A model generated the notes under the pieces. It saw nothing but the letters and a program-made list of their open reading frames with translations, made no database searches and was not told where the DNA came from. From assembly GCA_949014015.1 (NCBI GenBank), contig CARLGQ010000038.1, positions 1-34,388 on the forward strand: 34,388 bases of DNA, in the 5' to 3' direction. This DNA comes from an uncultured Lachnospiraceae bacterium. Lineage in GTDB: Bacteria > Bacillota > Clostridia > Lachnospirales > Lachnospiraceae. A program made the position numbers and the translations under genes. Positions within the stretch are counted from its first letter, which is position 1. The number at the start of each line of letters is the position of its first letter. Shown piece after piece: positions 3,522 through 9,207 of this stretch.

Positions 3522-3986
3522 ATGGCACTAAAGAATAATGTACAGGTGGTTATTGACGGAAAAGTATATACATTAAGCGGATACGAAGACCCCGAATACC
3601 TAAATAAAGTTGCTGCATATATTAATGCAAAACTTTCTGAGGTACGAATGGCAGAGGGATATAAACGTCAGAACCGAGAGGTGCAGAATATCCTGATGTA
3701 TCTCAATGTAGCAGATGATTATTATAAAGCAAAGAAAAATGCAGATACAGCAAGTTTAGAATTAGAAGAGCGCAATAAGGAGATTTCGAATTTAAAACAT
3801 GAATTAGTAGGACTAAAACTTCGAATGGAGGAGGAAGAGCTGGAATTAGAAGCTCTTCGAAAGACAGTAAGCGAACAGGAAAAAACGATTATTCGTTTAG
3901 AAGCAGAGAAAACACATACTAGAAAAGCACAAAATGAAAAAAGAAGCAAAGATGGGCAGGATAAGAATGAAAATCAGGATAAATAA
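3522..3986 (+). CDS. zapA: ZapA-like cell division protein with extended coiled-coil tail
   Basis: N-terminus VQVVIDGKVYTLSGYEDPEYLNKVAAYINAKLSEV fits the ZapA fold signature (I-x-G-x-xY-x-L). It is followed by a heptad-rich E/K segment. Longer (154 aa) than typical ZapA. Confidence 0.65.
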   Translation: MALKNNVQVVIDGKVYTLSGYEDPEYLNKVAAYINAKLSEVRMAEGYKRQNREVQNILMYLNVADDYYKAKKNADTASLELEERNKEISNLKHELVGLKLRMEEEELELEALRKTVSEQEKTIIRLEAEKTHTRKAQNEKRSKDGQDKNENQDK

Positions 3987-3995
3987 GGATAGAAA

Positions 3996-6317
3996 ATGTC
4001 ATGTCATTCCCAGAAAGAAGACATGACATTCTTTATAGAGAAAAAAGAAAAGATTGAGGAAAAAAGAATGGAGTTATATAAAAGTCAAAGGTATCAGGCA
4101 TGTTATGCAAAAAAAGCAGAATTGTTAGCACCAGCTGGCTCCTATGAAACGATGGTGGCGGCTGTTTTGGCAGGTGCTGATGCGGTTTATTTAGGGGGAA
4201 ATCTGTTTGGTGCAAGAGCATATGCCAACAACCTAGATACAGAAACCTTAAAATCTGCAATTGATTTTGTTCATCTTCATGGTAGAAAATTATATTTAAC
4301 AGTTAATACATTATTAAAAGAACAAGAGATGCAGGAAAAACTATATTCTTATTTACTTCCTTTTTATCAACAGGGATTAGATGCAGTAATTGTGCAGGAT
4401 ATTGGAGTATTTTCTTTTATTCAAAAGTATTTTCCCAAGCTTCCTATTCATGCTAGTACACAGATGACTTTGATGGGGCCTTATGGAGCAAAACTTTTAA
4501 AAGAAATGGGAGCTGTACGAATTGTAACTGCAAGAGAACTTTCCTTGGAGGAGATCCAAAAGATTCATCATACAGAAGGGTTAGAATCTTTAGAAATAGA
4601 AAGTTTTATACATGGAGCACTTTGTTATTGCTATTCGGGACAGTGTTTATTTAGTAGTTTGGCAGGAGGAAGAAGTGGAAATCGAGGACGTTGTGCACAG
4701 CCTTGCCGTCTTCCCTATCAGGTAAAAGAGAAAGAACAGAAAAAAAGATGGAGCCGTAAGGAGGAACCTTATCAATTAAGTCCAAAGGATTTGTGCAGTA
4801 TAGAACTTTTACCAGATATTTTAGAAGCAGGTGTCTATTCTCTTAAAATTGAAGGCAGGATGAAAAAGCCGGAATATACAGCAGGTGTAGTCAGTGTTTA
4901 TCGCAAATATCTAGATATTTATATTGAGCATGGAAGAGAGGGATTTGCTGTATCTGATAAGGATAAGAAAATTTTATATGATCTTTATAATCGGGGTGGA
5001 TTTACAAAAGGATATTATATAGAAAAGAACGGAAAAGATATGATGTTTCTTCAGGGAAAAGAAGCAGAAAGTGAGGAGAAAAATCAAGAACTTTTTGAAG
5101 CAGTTCGAAAAGAATTTCTCTCTGTAGAGCCAAAGGAAGCAATTGATGGAACAATAAGAATATATTCGAAAGAAAAGGCAAAACTTACTGTTCAATTTCA
5201 AAACCAAAGTGTTACTGTATTTGGAAAAGAGGTTGCTTTGGCAGAAAAGCAGCCTATGACAAAAGAAAATATTGCAAAACAAATAGAAAAAACCGGAAAA
5301 ACGCCATTTTCTTTTTCTAATCTTTTAGTAGAAACAGATGGAAAGAGTTTTATTTCTATAACAGAATTAAATGAATTGCGAAGAACAGCATTAGAACAAC
5401 TAACGGCAGCATATCTGCAACCATTTTATCGAGAAGAAAGTCAAAAAGAGATTTATATAAAGGAAATAAACAATAAAAAAAGAGAATTAAAATCCGCTTG
5501 TCAATATAAGATAAATGTCTATTTAGAAAAAAAAGAATATGTAGAAGCAGTAACAAAATTTACAGAACTTTCTTCGATTTATTTAGATGCAAGTGAATTT
5601 TCAACAGATGATGTAAAAAGTTATAAAAAACGGTTTCCAAATCAAAAGTTTTACTATATGCTTCCACCTATTTTTCGAGATACGACAAAGAATTGGTTAG
5701 AACAAGAATATCAATCATTGTTACAGGCAGGAATTGATGGATTTGTAGCAAGAAATTTAGATGAATTTTCTTTTCTAAAAGAAAAAAGAAAAGAAAAAGA
5801 AATACCGATTCGATTGGATTCTTCTCTTTATGGATTTAATTCGGAAAGTATGCAGGTATTTGAAAAACAGTGGAATGTAGAACAAATAACCCTTCCTTTG
5901 GAACTAAATGGAAGAGAGCTGGCACAAATTGCAGATAAAAGAAGTGAGTTAATGGTATATGGCTATTTACCAATGATGGTATCAGCACAATGTACGATGA
6001 AAAATTTAAAAGGATGTTCTTGCAAATCAGGAACACTTCTTTTAACCGATCGTTATAACAATGAATTTACAATAAAAAATAGGTGCAAATTTTGCTATAA
6101 TAAAATATATAATTGTAAACCACTTTCTCTTTTAAGTGTAAAAAAAGAAGTGGATCGAATTTTACCTAGTGCAATACGGCTGGATTTTACACTGGAATCT
6201 GTAAAAGAGGTAACAGAGATTCTTACAAAATTTATTCAGGCGTATCAAAAGGGTATTTTATTTTCAGAGGAACCTTTTGCATTTACAAGAGGGCATTTGA
6301 AACGGGGGATTGAGTAA
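3996..6317 (+). CDS. Peptidase U32 family protein, long form with C-terminal extension
   Basis: ELLAPAGSYETMVAAVLAGADAVYLGG is the canonical U32 N-terminal motif. Cys cluster GALCYCYSGQCL...CAQPCR. About 770 aa, typical of long Firmicutes U32 proteins. Alternative start at ATG 4068 (GAGGA RBS) is possible. Confidence 0.85.
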   Translation: MSCHSQKEDMTFFIEKKEKIEEKRMELYKSQRYQACYAKKAELLAPAGSYETMVAAVLAGADAVYLGGNLFGARAYANNLDTETLKSAIDFVHLHGRKLYLTVNTLLKEQEMQEKLYSYLLPFYQQGLDAVIVQDIGVFSFIQKYFPKLPIHASTQMTLMGPYGAKLLKEMGAVRIVTARELSLEEIQKIHHTEGLESLEIESFIHGALCYCYSGQCLFSSLAGGRSGNRGRCAQPCRLPYQVKEKEQKKRWSRKEEPYQLSPKDLCSIELLPDILEAGVYSLKIEGRMKKPEYTAGVVSVYRKYLDIYIEHGREGFAVSDKDKKILYDLYNRGGFTKGYYIEKNGKDMMFLQGKEAESEEKNQELFEAVRKEFLSVEPKEAIDGTIRIYSKEKAKLTVQFQNQSVTVFGKEVALAEKQPMTKENIAKQIEKTGKTPFSFSNLLVETDGKSFISITELNELRRTALEQLTAAYLQPFYREESQKEIYIKEINNKKRELKSACQYKINVYLEKKEYVEAVTKFTELSSIYLDASEFSTDDVKSYKKRFPNQKFYYMLPPIFRDTTKNWLEQEYQSLLQAGIDGFVARNLDEFSFLKEKRKEKEIPIRLDSSLYGFNSESMQVFEKQWNVEQITLPLELNGRELAQIADKRSELMVYGYLPMMVSAQCTMKNLKGCSCKSGTLLLTDRYNNEFTIKNRCKFCYNKIYNCKPLSLLSVKKEVDRILPSAIRLDFTLESVKEVTEILTKFIQAYQKGILFSEEPFAFTRGHLKRGIE

Positions 6318-6332
6318 GAGGGAGGTAGTAGT

Positions 6333-9110
6333 ATGGTTAGTCTGATGCAAGAGCTGTCAAAATATCTGATTATTTTGCTGATGATGGTATATACGTATTA
6401 TTCTTTTGCTTATTATAAAAAAAGAAAAGTAACAATATTAAATATTTGCCTGTTTATGGTACATTTTCTTGGTTTTTTTTCTTTATTTCTTTCTACAGGA
6501 AATGAGAATCTAATCCTTTTATATGGGGCGGAATTAGTTTATTTAATTTTGTTAGAAACATTATTTCATATTGCTTATCCAGCAGCTTCTAGATTATTAA
6601 CTAGTTTAGTTTGTATGCTAATGGTGATAGGGTTTCTTGTGCTGGCAAGACTTTCTATTGGAAAAGCAAACCGACAGTTTTTGATTTTAGCATTAGGAAC
6701 ACTTTTTATGGCAGCGATTCCATATATTATGAAAAAGTGGAAATCGTTAAGAAAGTTTGCATGGCTTTATGGAATTGCTGGGGTAGTGTTACTTTTGGTA
6801 GTTTTGATTTTGGCAGAAACCAGTTATGGAGCTAAACTTTCGATTGCATTACTTGGTGTTTCTTTTCAACCTTCTGAATTTGTAAAAATTAGTTATGTAT
6901 TTTTTATTGCTGCTATGTTTGAAGTAAGAGAGGATTGGAAGCAGGTAATAAAGACAGGAATTTTAGCAGCTGTGCATATTTTAATTTTAGTGGCATCGAC
7001 TGATTTGGGAAGTGCATTGATTTTTTCTTTGGTATTTGTATTTATGGTCTATGTAGCTACAAAAAAACCAGTTTATCTATTTGGCGGGTTATTAGCGGGA
7101 GCAGGTGCTTCCTATCTGGCTTATCAGACATTTTCCCATATTCAGACTCGTGTAACAGCGTGGATTGATCCCTGGTCTGTAATTGAAAGTAAAGGGTATC
7201 AGATTGCACAGTCTCTTTTTGCAATCGGAACAGGAGGCTGGTTAGGAGTAGGATTAAATAAAGGTTCTCCTTCCCAGATACCAGTTGTAGAAGAGGACTT
7301 TTTCTTTTCAGCAATTGCAGAAGAATTGGGCGGGTTAGTTGCAGTCTGTGTTATTTTTATCTGTTTAGGATGTCTGCTTTTGATTTTAAATATAGCGATT
7401 CAGATGCACAGTCATTTTTATCGCTATATGGCGTTAGGGCTTGCTTGTGAGTATGGAATACAAGTATTTTTAACAATTGGCGGAGCAATGAAACTAATTC
7501 CATCTACCGGTGTAACAATTCCATTTGTAAGCTGTGGCGGAAGTTCGATGCTAAGTTCACTTGTAATGTATGGAATTGTACAGGGACTATATATTTCAGA
7601 ATTAGAACTAGGGCTAGGAAAAGGGGAGGAAGAACAAAAACATACAGATGATGAAAGACTAAGAATTTTATCGGGAAAAACAAGTTGGAATCAAGAACTT
7701 TATTTTGTTATGTATTTATTTACAGGACTATTTCTATTAATGCCGTGTTATCTTGGTTATTTTCTTTTTGCAGAGAGTAAAGATGTTATCAACAATCCTT
7801 ATAATCTGCGGCAGGAGGATTTCGCAAAAAAGGTGGTACGTGGTACAATTCTTACGGCAGATGGAGAAGTGATTGCAAAGACAGAAACAAAGGAGGATGG
7901 AACAGAGCAAAGAGTTTATCCATTTGAGAATTTATTTTCCCATGTAGTAGGGTATTCACAGAGTGGAAAAGATGGATTGGAAAAAATCTATAACTTTCAG
8001 CTTTTAACATCAGATGAACCTATTTATGAAAAAATAGGACATGAATTAAGAGGGGAAAAAGATAAGGGAAATCAACTGATTACGACTTTAAATTATACGC
8101 TTCAAAAAGCAGCTTCTGAGGAATTGGAAGGCCAAAAAGGGGCTATTGTAGTGATGGAGCCATCGACTGGAAAAATTCTTGCTATGGTTTCGAAGCCAGA
8201 TTATAATCCAAACGAAATAGAAGCTATCTGGGAATCACTTGCAGATGATTCAGATGGAGAACAGAGCTATCTATTAAACCGTGCTACGCAAGGACGTTAT
8301 CCACCTGGTTCTACATTTAAGATTTTAACTGCATTAGAATATTTAAAAGAGTTTCCAGATCAGATTTCAAAGTTTTCTTATGATTGTACTGGTTCTTACC
8401 AACATAATGGAGCAACAATTCAATGTTCAAACCAAACTGTACATGGAACTATTTCATTTGAAACGGCTTTTGCGAAGTCTTGCAATGGTGCTTTTGCAAA
8501 AATTGGTTTGGAGCTTTCGATAGAACAGTTTTCAAAACTGTGTGAAAAATTTTTATTTAATCAAGATTTACCAGTTGCATTATCATATGTATCAAGTCAA
8601 TTTCAATTAAAGGATAGTTCTCCTGAATGGGAGATTATGCAAACTGCAATCGGACAGGGTACGGTGGAGATAACACCACTTCATCAGGCGATGATAACAG
8701 CAACCATTGCAAATGGTGGTGTTATGATGAAACCTTATTTAGTAGATCGAATTACAGATGTACATGGGAATACCATAAAAAAATATCGCCCTCAACGTTA
8801 TCAAGTACCCATTAGTGAACAGGAAGCAAAACAGCTGACAGAATGGATGACTTTGTGTGTAACAGAAGGAACAGGACATCGTGCTGGATTGGAAGAATAT
8901 TCAGTAGCTGGAAAGACAGGTACGGCAGAATGGGATCCAAAGAAAGAAGCGCACTCTTGGTTTGTGGGATTTTCTTCCGTAGAAAAACCAGAAATTGTAG
9001 TAAGTGTAATTGTAGAGGAGGGAGGAGCTGGAAGTAAAAAGGCAGCTTCGATAGCAGGAGAAATTTTTAAAGTATGGTATACATTAAAAGAATCCGAAAT
9101 GGATACGTAA
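6333..9110 (+). CDS. SEDS glycosyltransferase (FtsW/RodA/SpoVE family) fused in-frame to a class B penicillin-binding protein transpeptidase
   Basis: The N-terminal ~410 aa carry about 10 TM helices and the SEDS signature PVVEEDFFFSAIAEELGG plus PFVSCGGSSML. After an extra TM helix come a bPBP dimerisation domain and a transpeptidase domain with SXXK (STFK), SXN (SCN) and KTG (KTGTAEW) motifs. A single uninterrupted 925-codon ORF with a GGAGG RBS. Confidence 0.9.
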   Translation: MVSLMQELSKYLIILLMMVYTYYSFAYYKKRKVTILNICLFMVHFLGFFSLFLSTGNENLILLYGAELVYLILLETLFHIAYPAASRLLTSLVCMLMVIGFLVLARLSIGKANRQFLILALGTLFMAAIPYIMKKWKSLRKFAWLYGIAGVVLLLVVLILAETSYGAKLSIALLGVSFQPSEFVKISYVFFIAAMFEVREDWKQVIKTGILAAVHILILVASTDLGSALIFSLVFVFMVYVATKKPVYLFGGLLAGAGASYLAYQTFSHIQTRVTAWIDPWSVIESKGYQIAQSLFAIGTGGWLGVGLNKGSPSQIPVVEEDFFFSAIAEELGGLVAVCVIFICLGCLLLILNIAIQMHSHFYRYMALGLACEYGIQVFLTIGGAMKLIPSTGVTIPFVSCGGSSMLSSLVMYGIVQGLYISELELGLGKGEEEQKHTDDERLRILSGKTSWNQELYFVMYLFTGLFLLMPCYLGYFLFAESKDVINNPYNLRQEDFAKKVVRGTILTADGEVIAKTETKEDGTEQRVYPFENLFSHVVGYSQSGKDGLEKIYNFQLLTSDEPIYEKIGHELRGEKDKGNQLITTLNYTLQKAASEELEGQKGAIVVMEPSTGKILAMVSKPDYNPNEIEAIWESLADDSDGEQSYLLNRATQGRYPPGSTFKILTALEYLKEFPDQISKFSYDCTGSYQHNGATIQCSNQTVHGTISFETAFAKSCNGAFAKIGLELSIEQFSKLCEKFLFNQDLPVALSYVSSQFQLKDSSPEWEIMQTAIGQGTVEITPLHQAMITATIANGGVMMKPYLVDRITDVHGNTIKKYRPQRYQVPISEQEAKQLTEWMTLCVTEGTGHRAGLEEYSVAGKTGTAEWDPKKEAHSWFVGFSSVEKPEIVVSVIVEEGGAGSKKAASIAGEIFKVWYTLKESEMDT

Positions 9111-9164: not shown

Positions 9165-9207
9165 TATCCTAGTTTTGGTTTCACACCAAAGGACAGGAGG
9201 AATTGCA

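Follow-up and report, generated by a model that had tools for sequence, protein, structure and literature searches.

The fused gene and its product

The DNA analysed here, hereafter the window, comprises 34,388 nucleotides of contig CARLGQ010000038.1 (assembly GCA_949014015.1, positions 1 to 34,388 of the forward strand) from an uncultured Lachnospiraceae bacterium of the mouse gut, and the gene in question is a single open reading frame (ORF) that encodes both a SEDS (FtsW/RodA/SpoVE) glycosyltransferase and a penicillin-binding protein of class B (bPBP). Sequence comparisons show that this ORF is real and not an assembly artefact, and they support the reading that it is a natural, in-frame and catalytically intact SEDS-bPBP fusion. 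The best explanation of the data as a whole, held with considerable confidence, is that a genuine single-chain peptidoglycan synthase is the product of this gene, which would derive from an overlapping SEDS/bPBP gene pair. The 925-codon ORF reported by the initial annotation was recovered at exactly the same coordinates. Its features, with conservation taken from the best 120 database matches (42-100% identity; the homolog set), transmembrane abbreviated as TM, and structure taken from an AlphaFold2 (AF2) model with its predicted local distance difference test (pLDDT), are as follows.

6321..6325, + strand: Shine-Dalgarno sequence GGAGG, 7 nt 5' of the ATG
6333..9110, + strand: whole fused ORF, SEDS glycosyltransferase plus class B PBP (925 aa, ATG start)
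6333..6590, + strand: N-terminal extension, residues 1-86, with three predicted helices (2-30, 33-55 and 59-81; hydropathy and AF2, pLDDT 86-97)
6591..7622, + strand: SEDS (FtsW/RodA/SpoVE) 10-TM polymerase core, residues 87-430
7296..7298, + strand: codon of the predicted catalytic residue, Asp322 of PVVEEDFFF (alignment; invariant in 120/120)
7623..7691, + strand: cytoplasmic linker, residues 431-453 (23 residues), purine-rich, unconserved and partly disordered
7692..7790, + strand: TM anchor of the bPBP module, helix 454-486 (hydropathy, conservation and AF2)
7791..8138, + strand: PbpA-type pedestal (non-penicillin-binding) domain, residues 487-602
8139..9068, + strand: D,D-transpeptidase domain, residues 603-912
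8310..8321, + strand: SxxK motif S660-T-F-K663 with the acylation serine (invariant in 120/120)
8385..8486, + strand: putative Zn2+ site C685, C698, H704 and C717 (conservation; alignment to 7RD0/7RCZ)
8913..8921, + strand: KTG motif K861-T-G863 (invariant in 120/120)

The stop codon of the upstream U32-family gene lies at 6315-6317, leaving 15 nt between it and the ATG of the fusion gene. Public annotations of the identical locus differ in the start that they call, with some beginning at Met1 (6333; 925 aa) and others at Met42 (6456; 884 aa). On grounds of sequence and model the Met1 start is preferred, because GGAGG precedes the upstream ATG, residues 1-41 are conserved in homologs (including Y11 and Y20 at 90% or more), and Met42 falls inside a predicted helix.

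All three Pfam domains of the protein exceed their gathering thresholds, namely FTSW_RODA_SPOVE (PF01098; residues 91-417, 1.9e-55, 188.7 bits against a cut-off of 26.4), PBP_dimer_2 (PF21922; residues 503-581, 3.2e-11) and Transpeptidase (PF00905; residues 603-912, 3.9e-63). The first half of the protein has the 10-TM core fold of the SEDS family, and the second half has the class B PBP layout of a single TM anchor (454-486), a pedestal (503-581) and a transpeptidase domain (603-912). The pedestal is of the short PbpA type rather than the PF03717 type, and no PASTA domains are present by Pfam. The initial annotation had counted 10 TM helices followed by an 11th, a count that needs correction: by hydropathy and AF2, three extra helices precede the canonical SEDS TM1 (residues 87-107), making the bPBP anchor approximately the 14th helix. 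These extra helices form an extension that is 87-95 aa long in most homologs, includes a Lys/Arg cluster at residues 29-32, and has five positions (Y11, Y20, H44, Y64 and Y82) conserved at 90% or more. The extension is also present in stand-alone SEDS relatives, which align from residue 1. It is one of two features specific to the family, the other being the Cys/His motif described below.

Between the two modules, conservation falls to 0.19 over residues 426-450, with 45% gaps, and the DNA encoding the linker is 72% purine and 18% T. The AF2 model, built from a 101-sequence alignment, has a mean pLDDT of 89.2 and a predicted template-modelling score (pTM) of 0.76, and pLDDT drops below 50 only at residues 434-441, within the linker. 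Just ahead of the anchor helix is a conserved N-x-E-hydrophobic motif, and the same motif and TM helix also begin the separate bPBP genes of the split loci described below.

Continuity across the junction

Several sequence comparisons argue against a stop codon or frameshift near positions 7560-7700, where the initial annotation had placed the break to be expected if two genes had been merged in error. The identical 925-aa protein, or the same ORF called from Met42 (884 aa), is present on dozens of contigs in NCBI, ENA and Logan assemblies. A scan of genome contigs with the single protein as query returned two close relatives, both of them fused. In the metagenome-assembled genome (MAG) 'uncultured Lachnospiraceae bacterium MGBC114844' the copy is 99% identical and continuous over residues 1-925, and in MGBC128194 it is 80% identical and continuous over residues 1-922. 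At greater distances, the three domains occur in one protein in all 120 members of the homolog set. A comparison of linker lengths, as had been proposed for such homologs, gave a range of 11-116 residues with the frame kept throughout.

The junction itself also bears on how the protein could be made. Both alternative frames are interrupted by stops across the junction, and there is no in-frame ATG, GTG or TTG codon between Met412, in SEDS TM10, and Met460, in the anchor helix. Without a start codon in the linker, translation of a membrane-anchored bPBP on its own could not begin, and the fusion is therefore obligate in this lineage.

Gene neighbourhood

The fusion gene is embedded in a conserved set of genes, of which the nearest are listed below.

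3522..3986, + strand: zapA-like gene (Pfam ZapA, 5.7e-17; conserved synteny)
3996..6317, + strand: U32-family protein with DUF3656 (Pfam; conserved synteny), 9 nt 3' of zapA
9175..9660, + strand: NUDIX hydrolase, a conserved downstream neighbour (Pfam; synteny)

A gene for an M32 carboxypeptidase follows the NUDIX hydrolase. The zapA-like and U32 genes that the first description placed directly upstream were both identified by Pfam, and their tight spacing is real. With gaps of 9 and 15 nt and no intervening terminator, zapA, the U32 gene and the fusion gene probably form an operon of which zapA is the first gene; the only terminator-like site between zapA and the fusion gene is a weak one inside the U32 gene. 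The order ruvA-ruvB-zapA-U32(DUF3656)-[SEDS/bPBP gene]-NUDIX is kept in Agathobacter and Acetatifactor (~43-44% identity). The block is likewise kept in GCA_947626915 (~46% identity), but there the gene at the zapA position has no Pfam match.

The U32 protein had been called a peptidase, and while its membership of the U32 family stands, the protease reading is doubtful. Its best NCBIfam matches, partial and all below cut-off, are to TrhP (a tRNA U34 hydroxylase) and to UbiU/UbiV, and by this resemblance its activity may be that of an Fe-S hydroxylase-type enzyme and not of a protease. Its presence is no evidence for a role in proteolysis or at the septum.

Split relatives at the same locus

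An exhaustive HMMER search was made with residues 1-430 as the query, and protein lengths were tallied among the top 150 representatives. Approximately 39 of these are fused (at least 880 aa) and approximately 64 are stand-alone SEDS proteins (420-500 aa), the latter matching from residue 1 to about residue 429 and finishing in short charged tails. In the case of locus L010, a 434-aa SEDS gene is joined through an ATGA stop/start overlap to a gene for a 505-aa protein with PBP_dimer_2 and Transpeptidase domains, followed by NUDIX and M32 genes in the same order as in the window. At L011, the SEDS stop codon is followed by GGAGG and then, 5 nt later, by the ATG of the bPBP gene. At L009, ruvAB-zapA-U32 lies upstream of a stand-alone 437-aa SEDS gene, and the contig breaks off too early for the next gene to be identified. 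The ORF that follows at L009 (8311-8706) has a GTG start in a 4-nt overlap and encodes at least 132 residues that are charged, repetitive (GSGRGPAD-like) and apparently disordered. If this ORF is a bPBP gene, its product has an unusually long cytoplasmic tail.

A scan of metagenome contigs added 80 further loci, and those that cross the junction were sorted by frame. Nine are fused and approximately 60 are split. Three of the nine fused loci are Lachnospiraceae-like, five are high-GC and Coriobacteriia-like, and one is another high-GC locus. Among 56 unique split junctions the bPBP frame is +1 relative to SEDS in 46, +2 (the ATGA type) in 5, and in frame after the stop in the remaining 5. The SEDS stop is often just 10-31 nt ahead of the codons for the TM anchor, and in 27 of the 56 the last canonical start before the anchor helix precedes the SEDS stop by more than 20 nt, giving overlaps of up to ~185 nt. 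It was considered whether all split relatives are frameshift artefacts at homopolymers, since L008 and L009 break at runs of A7 and A6, respectively. This was rejected, as L010 and L011 have proper starts and ribosome-binding sites, and a blanket artefact is also countered by the ~60 independent metagenome loci with the same organisation.

Long out-of-frame SEDS/bPBP overlaps (20-185 nt) were observed in L020, L073, L082, L025, L041 and others, and none in the window. The long +1 overlaps may be true overlaps, or they may reflect non-canonical starts or +1 frameshifting. The +1 arrangement might yield some fused product by ribosomal frameshifting, such that genomes tune the ratio of fused to separate protein. 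The distribution of substitutions over codon positions at the junction (0.30/0.36/0.33) is flat in both frames, as compared with third-position shares of 0.67 and 0.65 in the two cores, and this flat phase neither backs nor rules against long true overlaps or frameshifting. A junction without codon-phase constraint means that one-base insertions or deletions can switch a locus between the fused and split states.

On the simplest reading, the ancestral state would be an overlapping, translationally coupled SEDS/bPBP pair, still found in most Lachnospiraceae in the setting ruvAB-zapA-U32-[pair]-NUDIX. The DNA coding for the two charged tails is purine-rich and open in two frames, such that a one-base insertion or deletion could merge or separate the ORFs, and would have done so repeatedly. 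Both states would be tolerated because the two proteins form a 1:1 complex and the termini that are joined are both cytoplasmic. As for the clade of the window itself, it is uniformly fused down to 54% identity, with linker flanks conserved and linker middles variable, a pattern consistent with its descent from one fusion.

Catalytic residues and selection

The motif positions first given for the two active sites proved accurate: PVVEEDFFF at 317-325, STFK at 660, SCN at 716 and KTG at 861. Asp322, within the first of these, corresponds in alignment to the HTDF(I/V)F aspartate of four solved SEDS chains, including FtsW of P. aeruginosa and the RodA proteins of E. coli and T. thermophilus. In the SxN motif (S716-C-N718), Ser716 and Asn718 are invariant in 120/120 homologs, as are the SxxK and KTG motifs listed above. 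Third codon positions account for 67% of substitutions between related loci in the SEDS core and for 65% in the PBP core, a bias that indicates purifying selection on both. Beta-lactam complexes (4N1X, 4RA7 and others) are known only from relatives, at 30-31% identity.

A putative zinc site beside the SxN motif

The SCN motif was noted from the outset, but the conserved residues around it, C685, C698, H704 and C717, were overlooked. Of these, C685, H704 and C717 are invariant in the homolog set and C698 is conserved at 90% or more; C717 occupies the X position of SxN. The best PDB matches of this segment are C. difficile PBP3 (7RD0) and SpoVD (7RCZ), and the four positions line up with the Cys-Cys-His-Cys Zn2+ ligands of both structures. 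Zn2+-binding serine PBPs are described as having two Asp/Cys residues, an invariant His, and a Cys as the X of SxN (Sacco et al., PMC9334274), and C685, C698, H704 and C717 provide each of these. Thus, as in C. difficile PBP3 and SpoVD, the site next to SxN is predicted to bind a structural or redox-sensitive Zn2+. The ligand spacing is 13/6/13 in the fusion versus 13/10/13 in C. difficile PBP2 (7RCW). C. difficile PBP3, SpoVD and PBP2 differ from the fusion in being stand-alone bPBPs.

A fused ORF of ~910-955 aa on a metagenome contig of 69% G+C (L036; LSQX01207724.1) was also observed to have the Cys-Cys-His-Cys residues and SCN. The Coriobacteriia-type fusions, in contrast, do not carry these residues, and the sequence of L036 suggests that Zn-type fusions have one more, independent lineage.

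Known fusions and related systems

A 2025 Microlife survey counts 117 InterPro proteins with both SEDS and transpeptidase domains, termed putative 'bifunctional class B' synthases, and gives as examples proteins of Senegalimassilia faecalis (931 aa) and Rhodococcus jostii RHA1 (947 aa) (PMC12516126). The window protein likewise has both domains in one polypeptide, reproducibly. The survey chimeras have the same module order as the window fusion (FtsW/RodA/SpoVE glycosyltransferase, pedestal, transpeptidase) and a similar length of ~900-950 aa, and the S. faecalis protein has the same three Pfam/InterPro domains, including PBPA_dimer (PF21922) (PMC12516126). The survey text consulted does not describe Lachnospiraceae, split relatives, the N-terminal extension or the Zn motif (PMC12516126). 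The initial annotation had regarded a covalent fusion as uncommon, which holds across bacteria; the architecture, however, was already described, and it recurs within Lachnospiraceae. In the literature searched, the Lachnospiraceae-wide locus, the coexistence and ready interconversion of fused and split forms, the three-helix extension and a Zn-type motif in a fused protein were not found.

The Coriobacteriia-type fusions recovered here are of 62-65% GC and are without the Cys/His motif. Their hydrophobic helices ahead of the core align roughly with helices 2 and 3 of the window protein, and the two with the most complete N-termini (L054 and L058) have two extra N-terminal helices, compared with three in the window fusion. 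PDB 4MNR, a structure from Eggerthella lenta released in 2013, is entitled 'D,D-transpeptidase domain of peptidoglycan glycosyltransferase'. Over 423 residues it shows 99.8% identity to the C-terminal part (L045; 3788-5056) of a fused ORF of ~900-930 aa, and by this match 4MNR is a fragment of a natural fusion. For the Atopobium parvulum entries 4JBF, 4N1X and 4RA7, relatives at 56% identity are fused, and these entries are probably fragments of natural fusions as well. Part of such a fusion was thus solved over a decade ago, beta-lactam complexes included. The 4MNR and A. parvulum structures differ from the window protein in comprising the soluble pedestal and transpeptidase only, in lacking Cys-Cys-His-Cys, and in being from Actinomycetota.

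Among unfused systems, the closest paradigm is the actinobacterial RodA-PbpA pair, because the pedestal is of the PbpA type and dcw and mreBCD genes are absent from the window. The actinobacterial genes, which include M. tuberculosis PbpA (3LO7/3UN7), encode two proteins, whereas the window gene encodes one chain. The actinobacterial pair resides in a pstP-rodA-pbpA-pknAB cluster, a gene context unlike the ruvAB-zapA-U32 context of the window fusion. The canonical SEDS and bPBP proteins have no three-helix N-terminal extension, a longer PF03717-type pedestal, and HTD where the window fusion has EED.

The initial annotation had also suggested that such a protein is a ready-made single-chain synthase. 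That it is a fusion stands, but engineered RodA-PBP2 fusions of the same orientation have put this idea to use before. For instance, E. coli RodA-(GGGS)3-PBP2 works both in vivo and in vitro, and a B. subtilis SEDS-bPBP fusion is cited as functional for sporulation (PMC6207328). The cryo-electron microscopy structure of E. coli RodA-PBP2 (8TJ3) came from a fusion, and in that work RodA was stimulated by the TM helix of PBP2 alone (PMC10449877). The solved complexes (T. thermophilus RodA-PBP2, 6PL5; E. coli RodA-PBP2, 8TJ3; P. aeruginosa FtsWIQBL, 8BH1) differ from the window protein in that fusions there are artificial.

Proposed mechanism and alternative explanations

By homology, the SEDS module (residues 87-430, with Asp322) would polymerise lipid II into glycan strands. 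Its cytoplasmic C-terminus would pass, by way of the short flexible linker, into the TM anchor of the bPBP (454-486). The topology permits this with no rearrangement, since SEDS ends and the bPBP begins on the cytoplasmic side. The anchor helix would pack on the SEDS bundle and stimulate polymerisation as it does in solved complexes. The PbpA-type pedestal would be positioned over the extracellular loops of SEDS, and Ser660 of the transpeptidase would cross-link the nascent strand.

Several points weigh against a genuine, active single-chain synthase derived from a gene pair. Its enzymatic activity is inferred by homology to RodA-PBP2 and FtsW-FtsI. Scores against NCBIfam equivalog models all fall short of the trusted cut-offs, both for the SEDS module (FtsW TIGR02614, 204.8 against 337.5; RodA TIGR02210, 172.9 against 336.7; SpoVE TIGR02615, 152.3 against 448.8) and for the bPBP module (MrdA/PBP2 TIGR03423, 284.3 against 455; SpoVD TIGR02214, 185.4 against 688; FtsI NF011685, 42.8 against 737), and the module pair is therefore not assignable to a known functional class. 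With respect to its origin, the two states are interleaved when the SEDS half is placed on a neighbour-joining tree (59 tips fused, 64 split), with 33 Fitch changes as compared with a mean of 41 for shuffled labels, but the tree is poorly resolved at 50% identity or less and its count of independent fusions is an upper bound. In addition, some of the 'split' loci, such as L008, may be assembly frameshifts at A-runs. Finally, engineered RodA-PBP2 fusions were partly cleaved in the linker (PMC6207328).

This last point bears on the possibility that the polypeptide is cut in its disordered linker after membrane insertion, giving a two-subunit complex for which the fusion serves only 1:1 co-expression. 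The linker is indeed unconserved and disordered, and split and fused forms seem interchangeable in evolution. However, the linker has no conserved cleavage motif, some homologs have linkers of just 11 residues, and in the engineered constructs cleavage affected a minor fraction, with the intact fusion active; processing of this kind is considered unlikely. A degenerate or regulatory paralog, acting as a pseudo-enzyme or scaffold, might explain the scores below every equivalog cut-off, the replacement of HTD by EED, and N-terminal helices without a known function. The catalytic residues of both modules are nonetheless invariant across the whole identity range of the homolog set, third-position bias is present in both cores, and the fold matches are close; the invariant residues together with purifying selection make the pseudo-enzyme reading highly improbable. 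That an assembly or sequencing frameshift joined two adjacent genes, the true locus being a separate SEDS gene and bPBP gene, is scarcely credible: related loci are mostly split, in many cases at A-runs, and the bPBP is usually one frame off, and a one-base error at either of the two A5 runs of the window junction could mimic a fusion, but the identical product recurs on dozens of contigs, the MAG copies at 99% and 80% identity are fused, all members of the clade down to 54% identity are fused, their in-frame linkers differing, the other two frames contain stops, and a separate bPBP would have no start codon.

Other features of the window

Several further features of the window were noted. An 811-aa protein encoded at 17864-20299 (+) resembles the eukaryotic Major Vault Protein (MVP), with Pfam matches to MVP_shoulder (5.4e-21) and Vault_3, and matches PDB chains 4HL8 and 2QZV at E ~2e-16 over residues 426-739. 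Directly upstream of it, at 16055-17845 (+), is a gene for a 596-aa actin-like ATPase with weak PilM/FtsA/MreB matches. A small membrane protein with zf-HC2 (anti-sigma-factor-like) is encoded at 12404-12742 (+), directly upstream of polA (12755-15427), and no sigma factor gene is visible beside it. Farther downstream, a VanZ-like protein overlaps a DUF6142 protein (29771-30569, +), and after these comes a 680-aa protein whose sole match, to M29 aminopeptidase, is partial. G+C content is low at 1001-2000 (0.256) and 28001-29000 (0.225), compared with a window mean of ~0.35, and no listed ORF of 100 aa or more is found in either segment.

Cellular role and implications

The genes around the fusion (ruvAB, zapA, U32, NUDIX, M32 and polA) are not those of a classical division or elongation cluster: no dcw genes (mraZ/mraW/mraY/mur/ftsZ) occur anywhere in the 34-kb window, nor do mreBCD or rlmH, the sole actin-like ORF being the weak PilM/FtsA/MreB-type match (16055-17845), 7 kb away. 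Lachnospiraceae members are labelled by NCBI as 'FtsW/RodA/SpoVE family cell cycle protein'. The initial annotation had suggested a divisome or sporulation-septum role from the adjacency of zapA and the U32 gene, but the synteny and spacing do not establish such a role. The linkage to zapA is suggestive of a role in division. The canonical FtsW-FtsI pair is missing in many Clostridia (PMC10693644), and a zapA-linked synthase is for this reason a reasonable candidate for septation. That the zapA-linked SEDS/PbpA-type unit, fused or split, would be the vegetative septal peptidoglycan synthase of Lachnospiraceae is nevertheless a tentative and rather doubtful proposal. The literature searched did not give the gene surroundings of C. 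difficile PBP3, which might have hinted at a role.

In this family the same synthase occurs, at one genomic position, either fused or as two overlapping genes, an arrangement that constitutes a natural experiment. One-base changes in an unconstrained spacer separate the two states, which speaks for a nearly neutral effect of tethering, and the locus supplies matched fused/split pairs with which the effect of covalent linkage on activity or regulation could be tested. As natural single-chain SEDS-bPBP proteins show, tethering is compatible with a working 1:1 complex, and these proteins are also convenient for expression, cryo-electron microscopy and inhibitor screening, uses to which engineered versions have already been put. 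The division synthases of gut anaerobes are poorly defined, and the susceptibility of these organisms to beta-lactams matters for disturbance of the microbiome. With its Zn-type site and probably co-transcribed zapA, the unit described here is a candidate for the control of cell-wall synthesis in abundant gut anaerobes.

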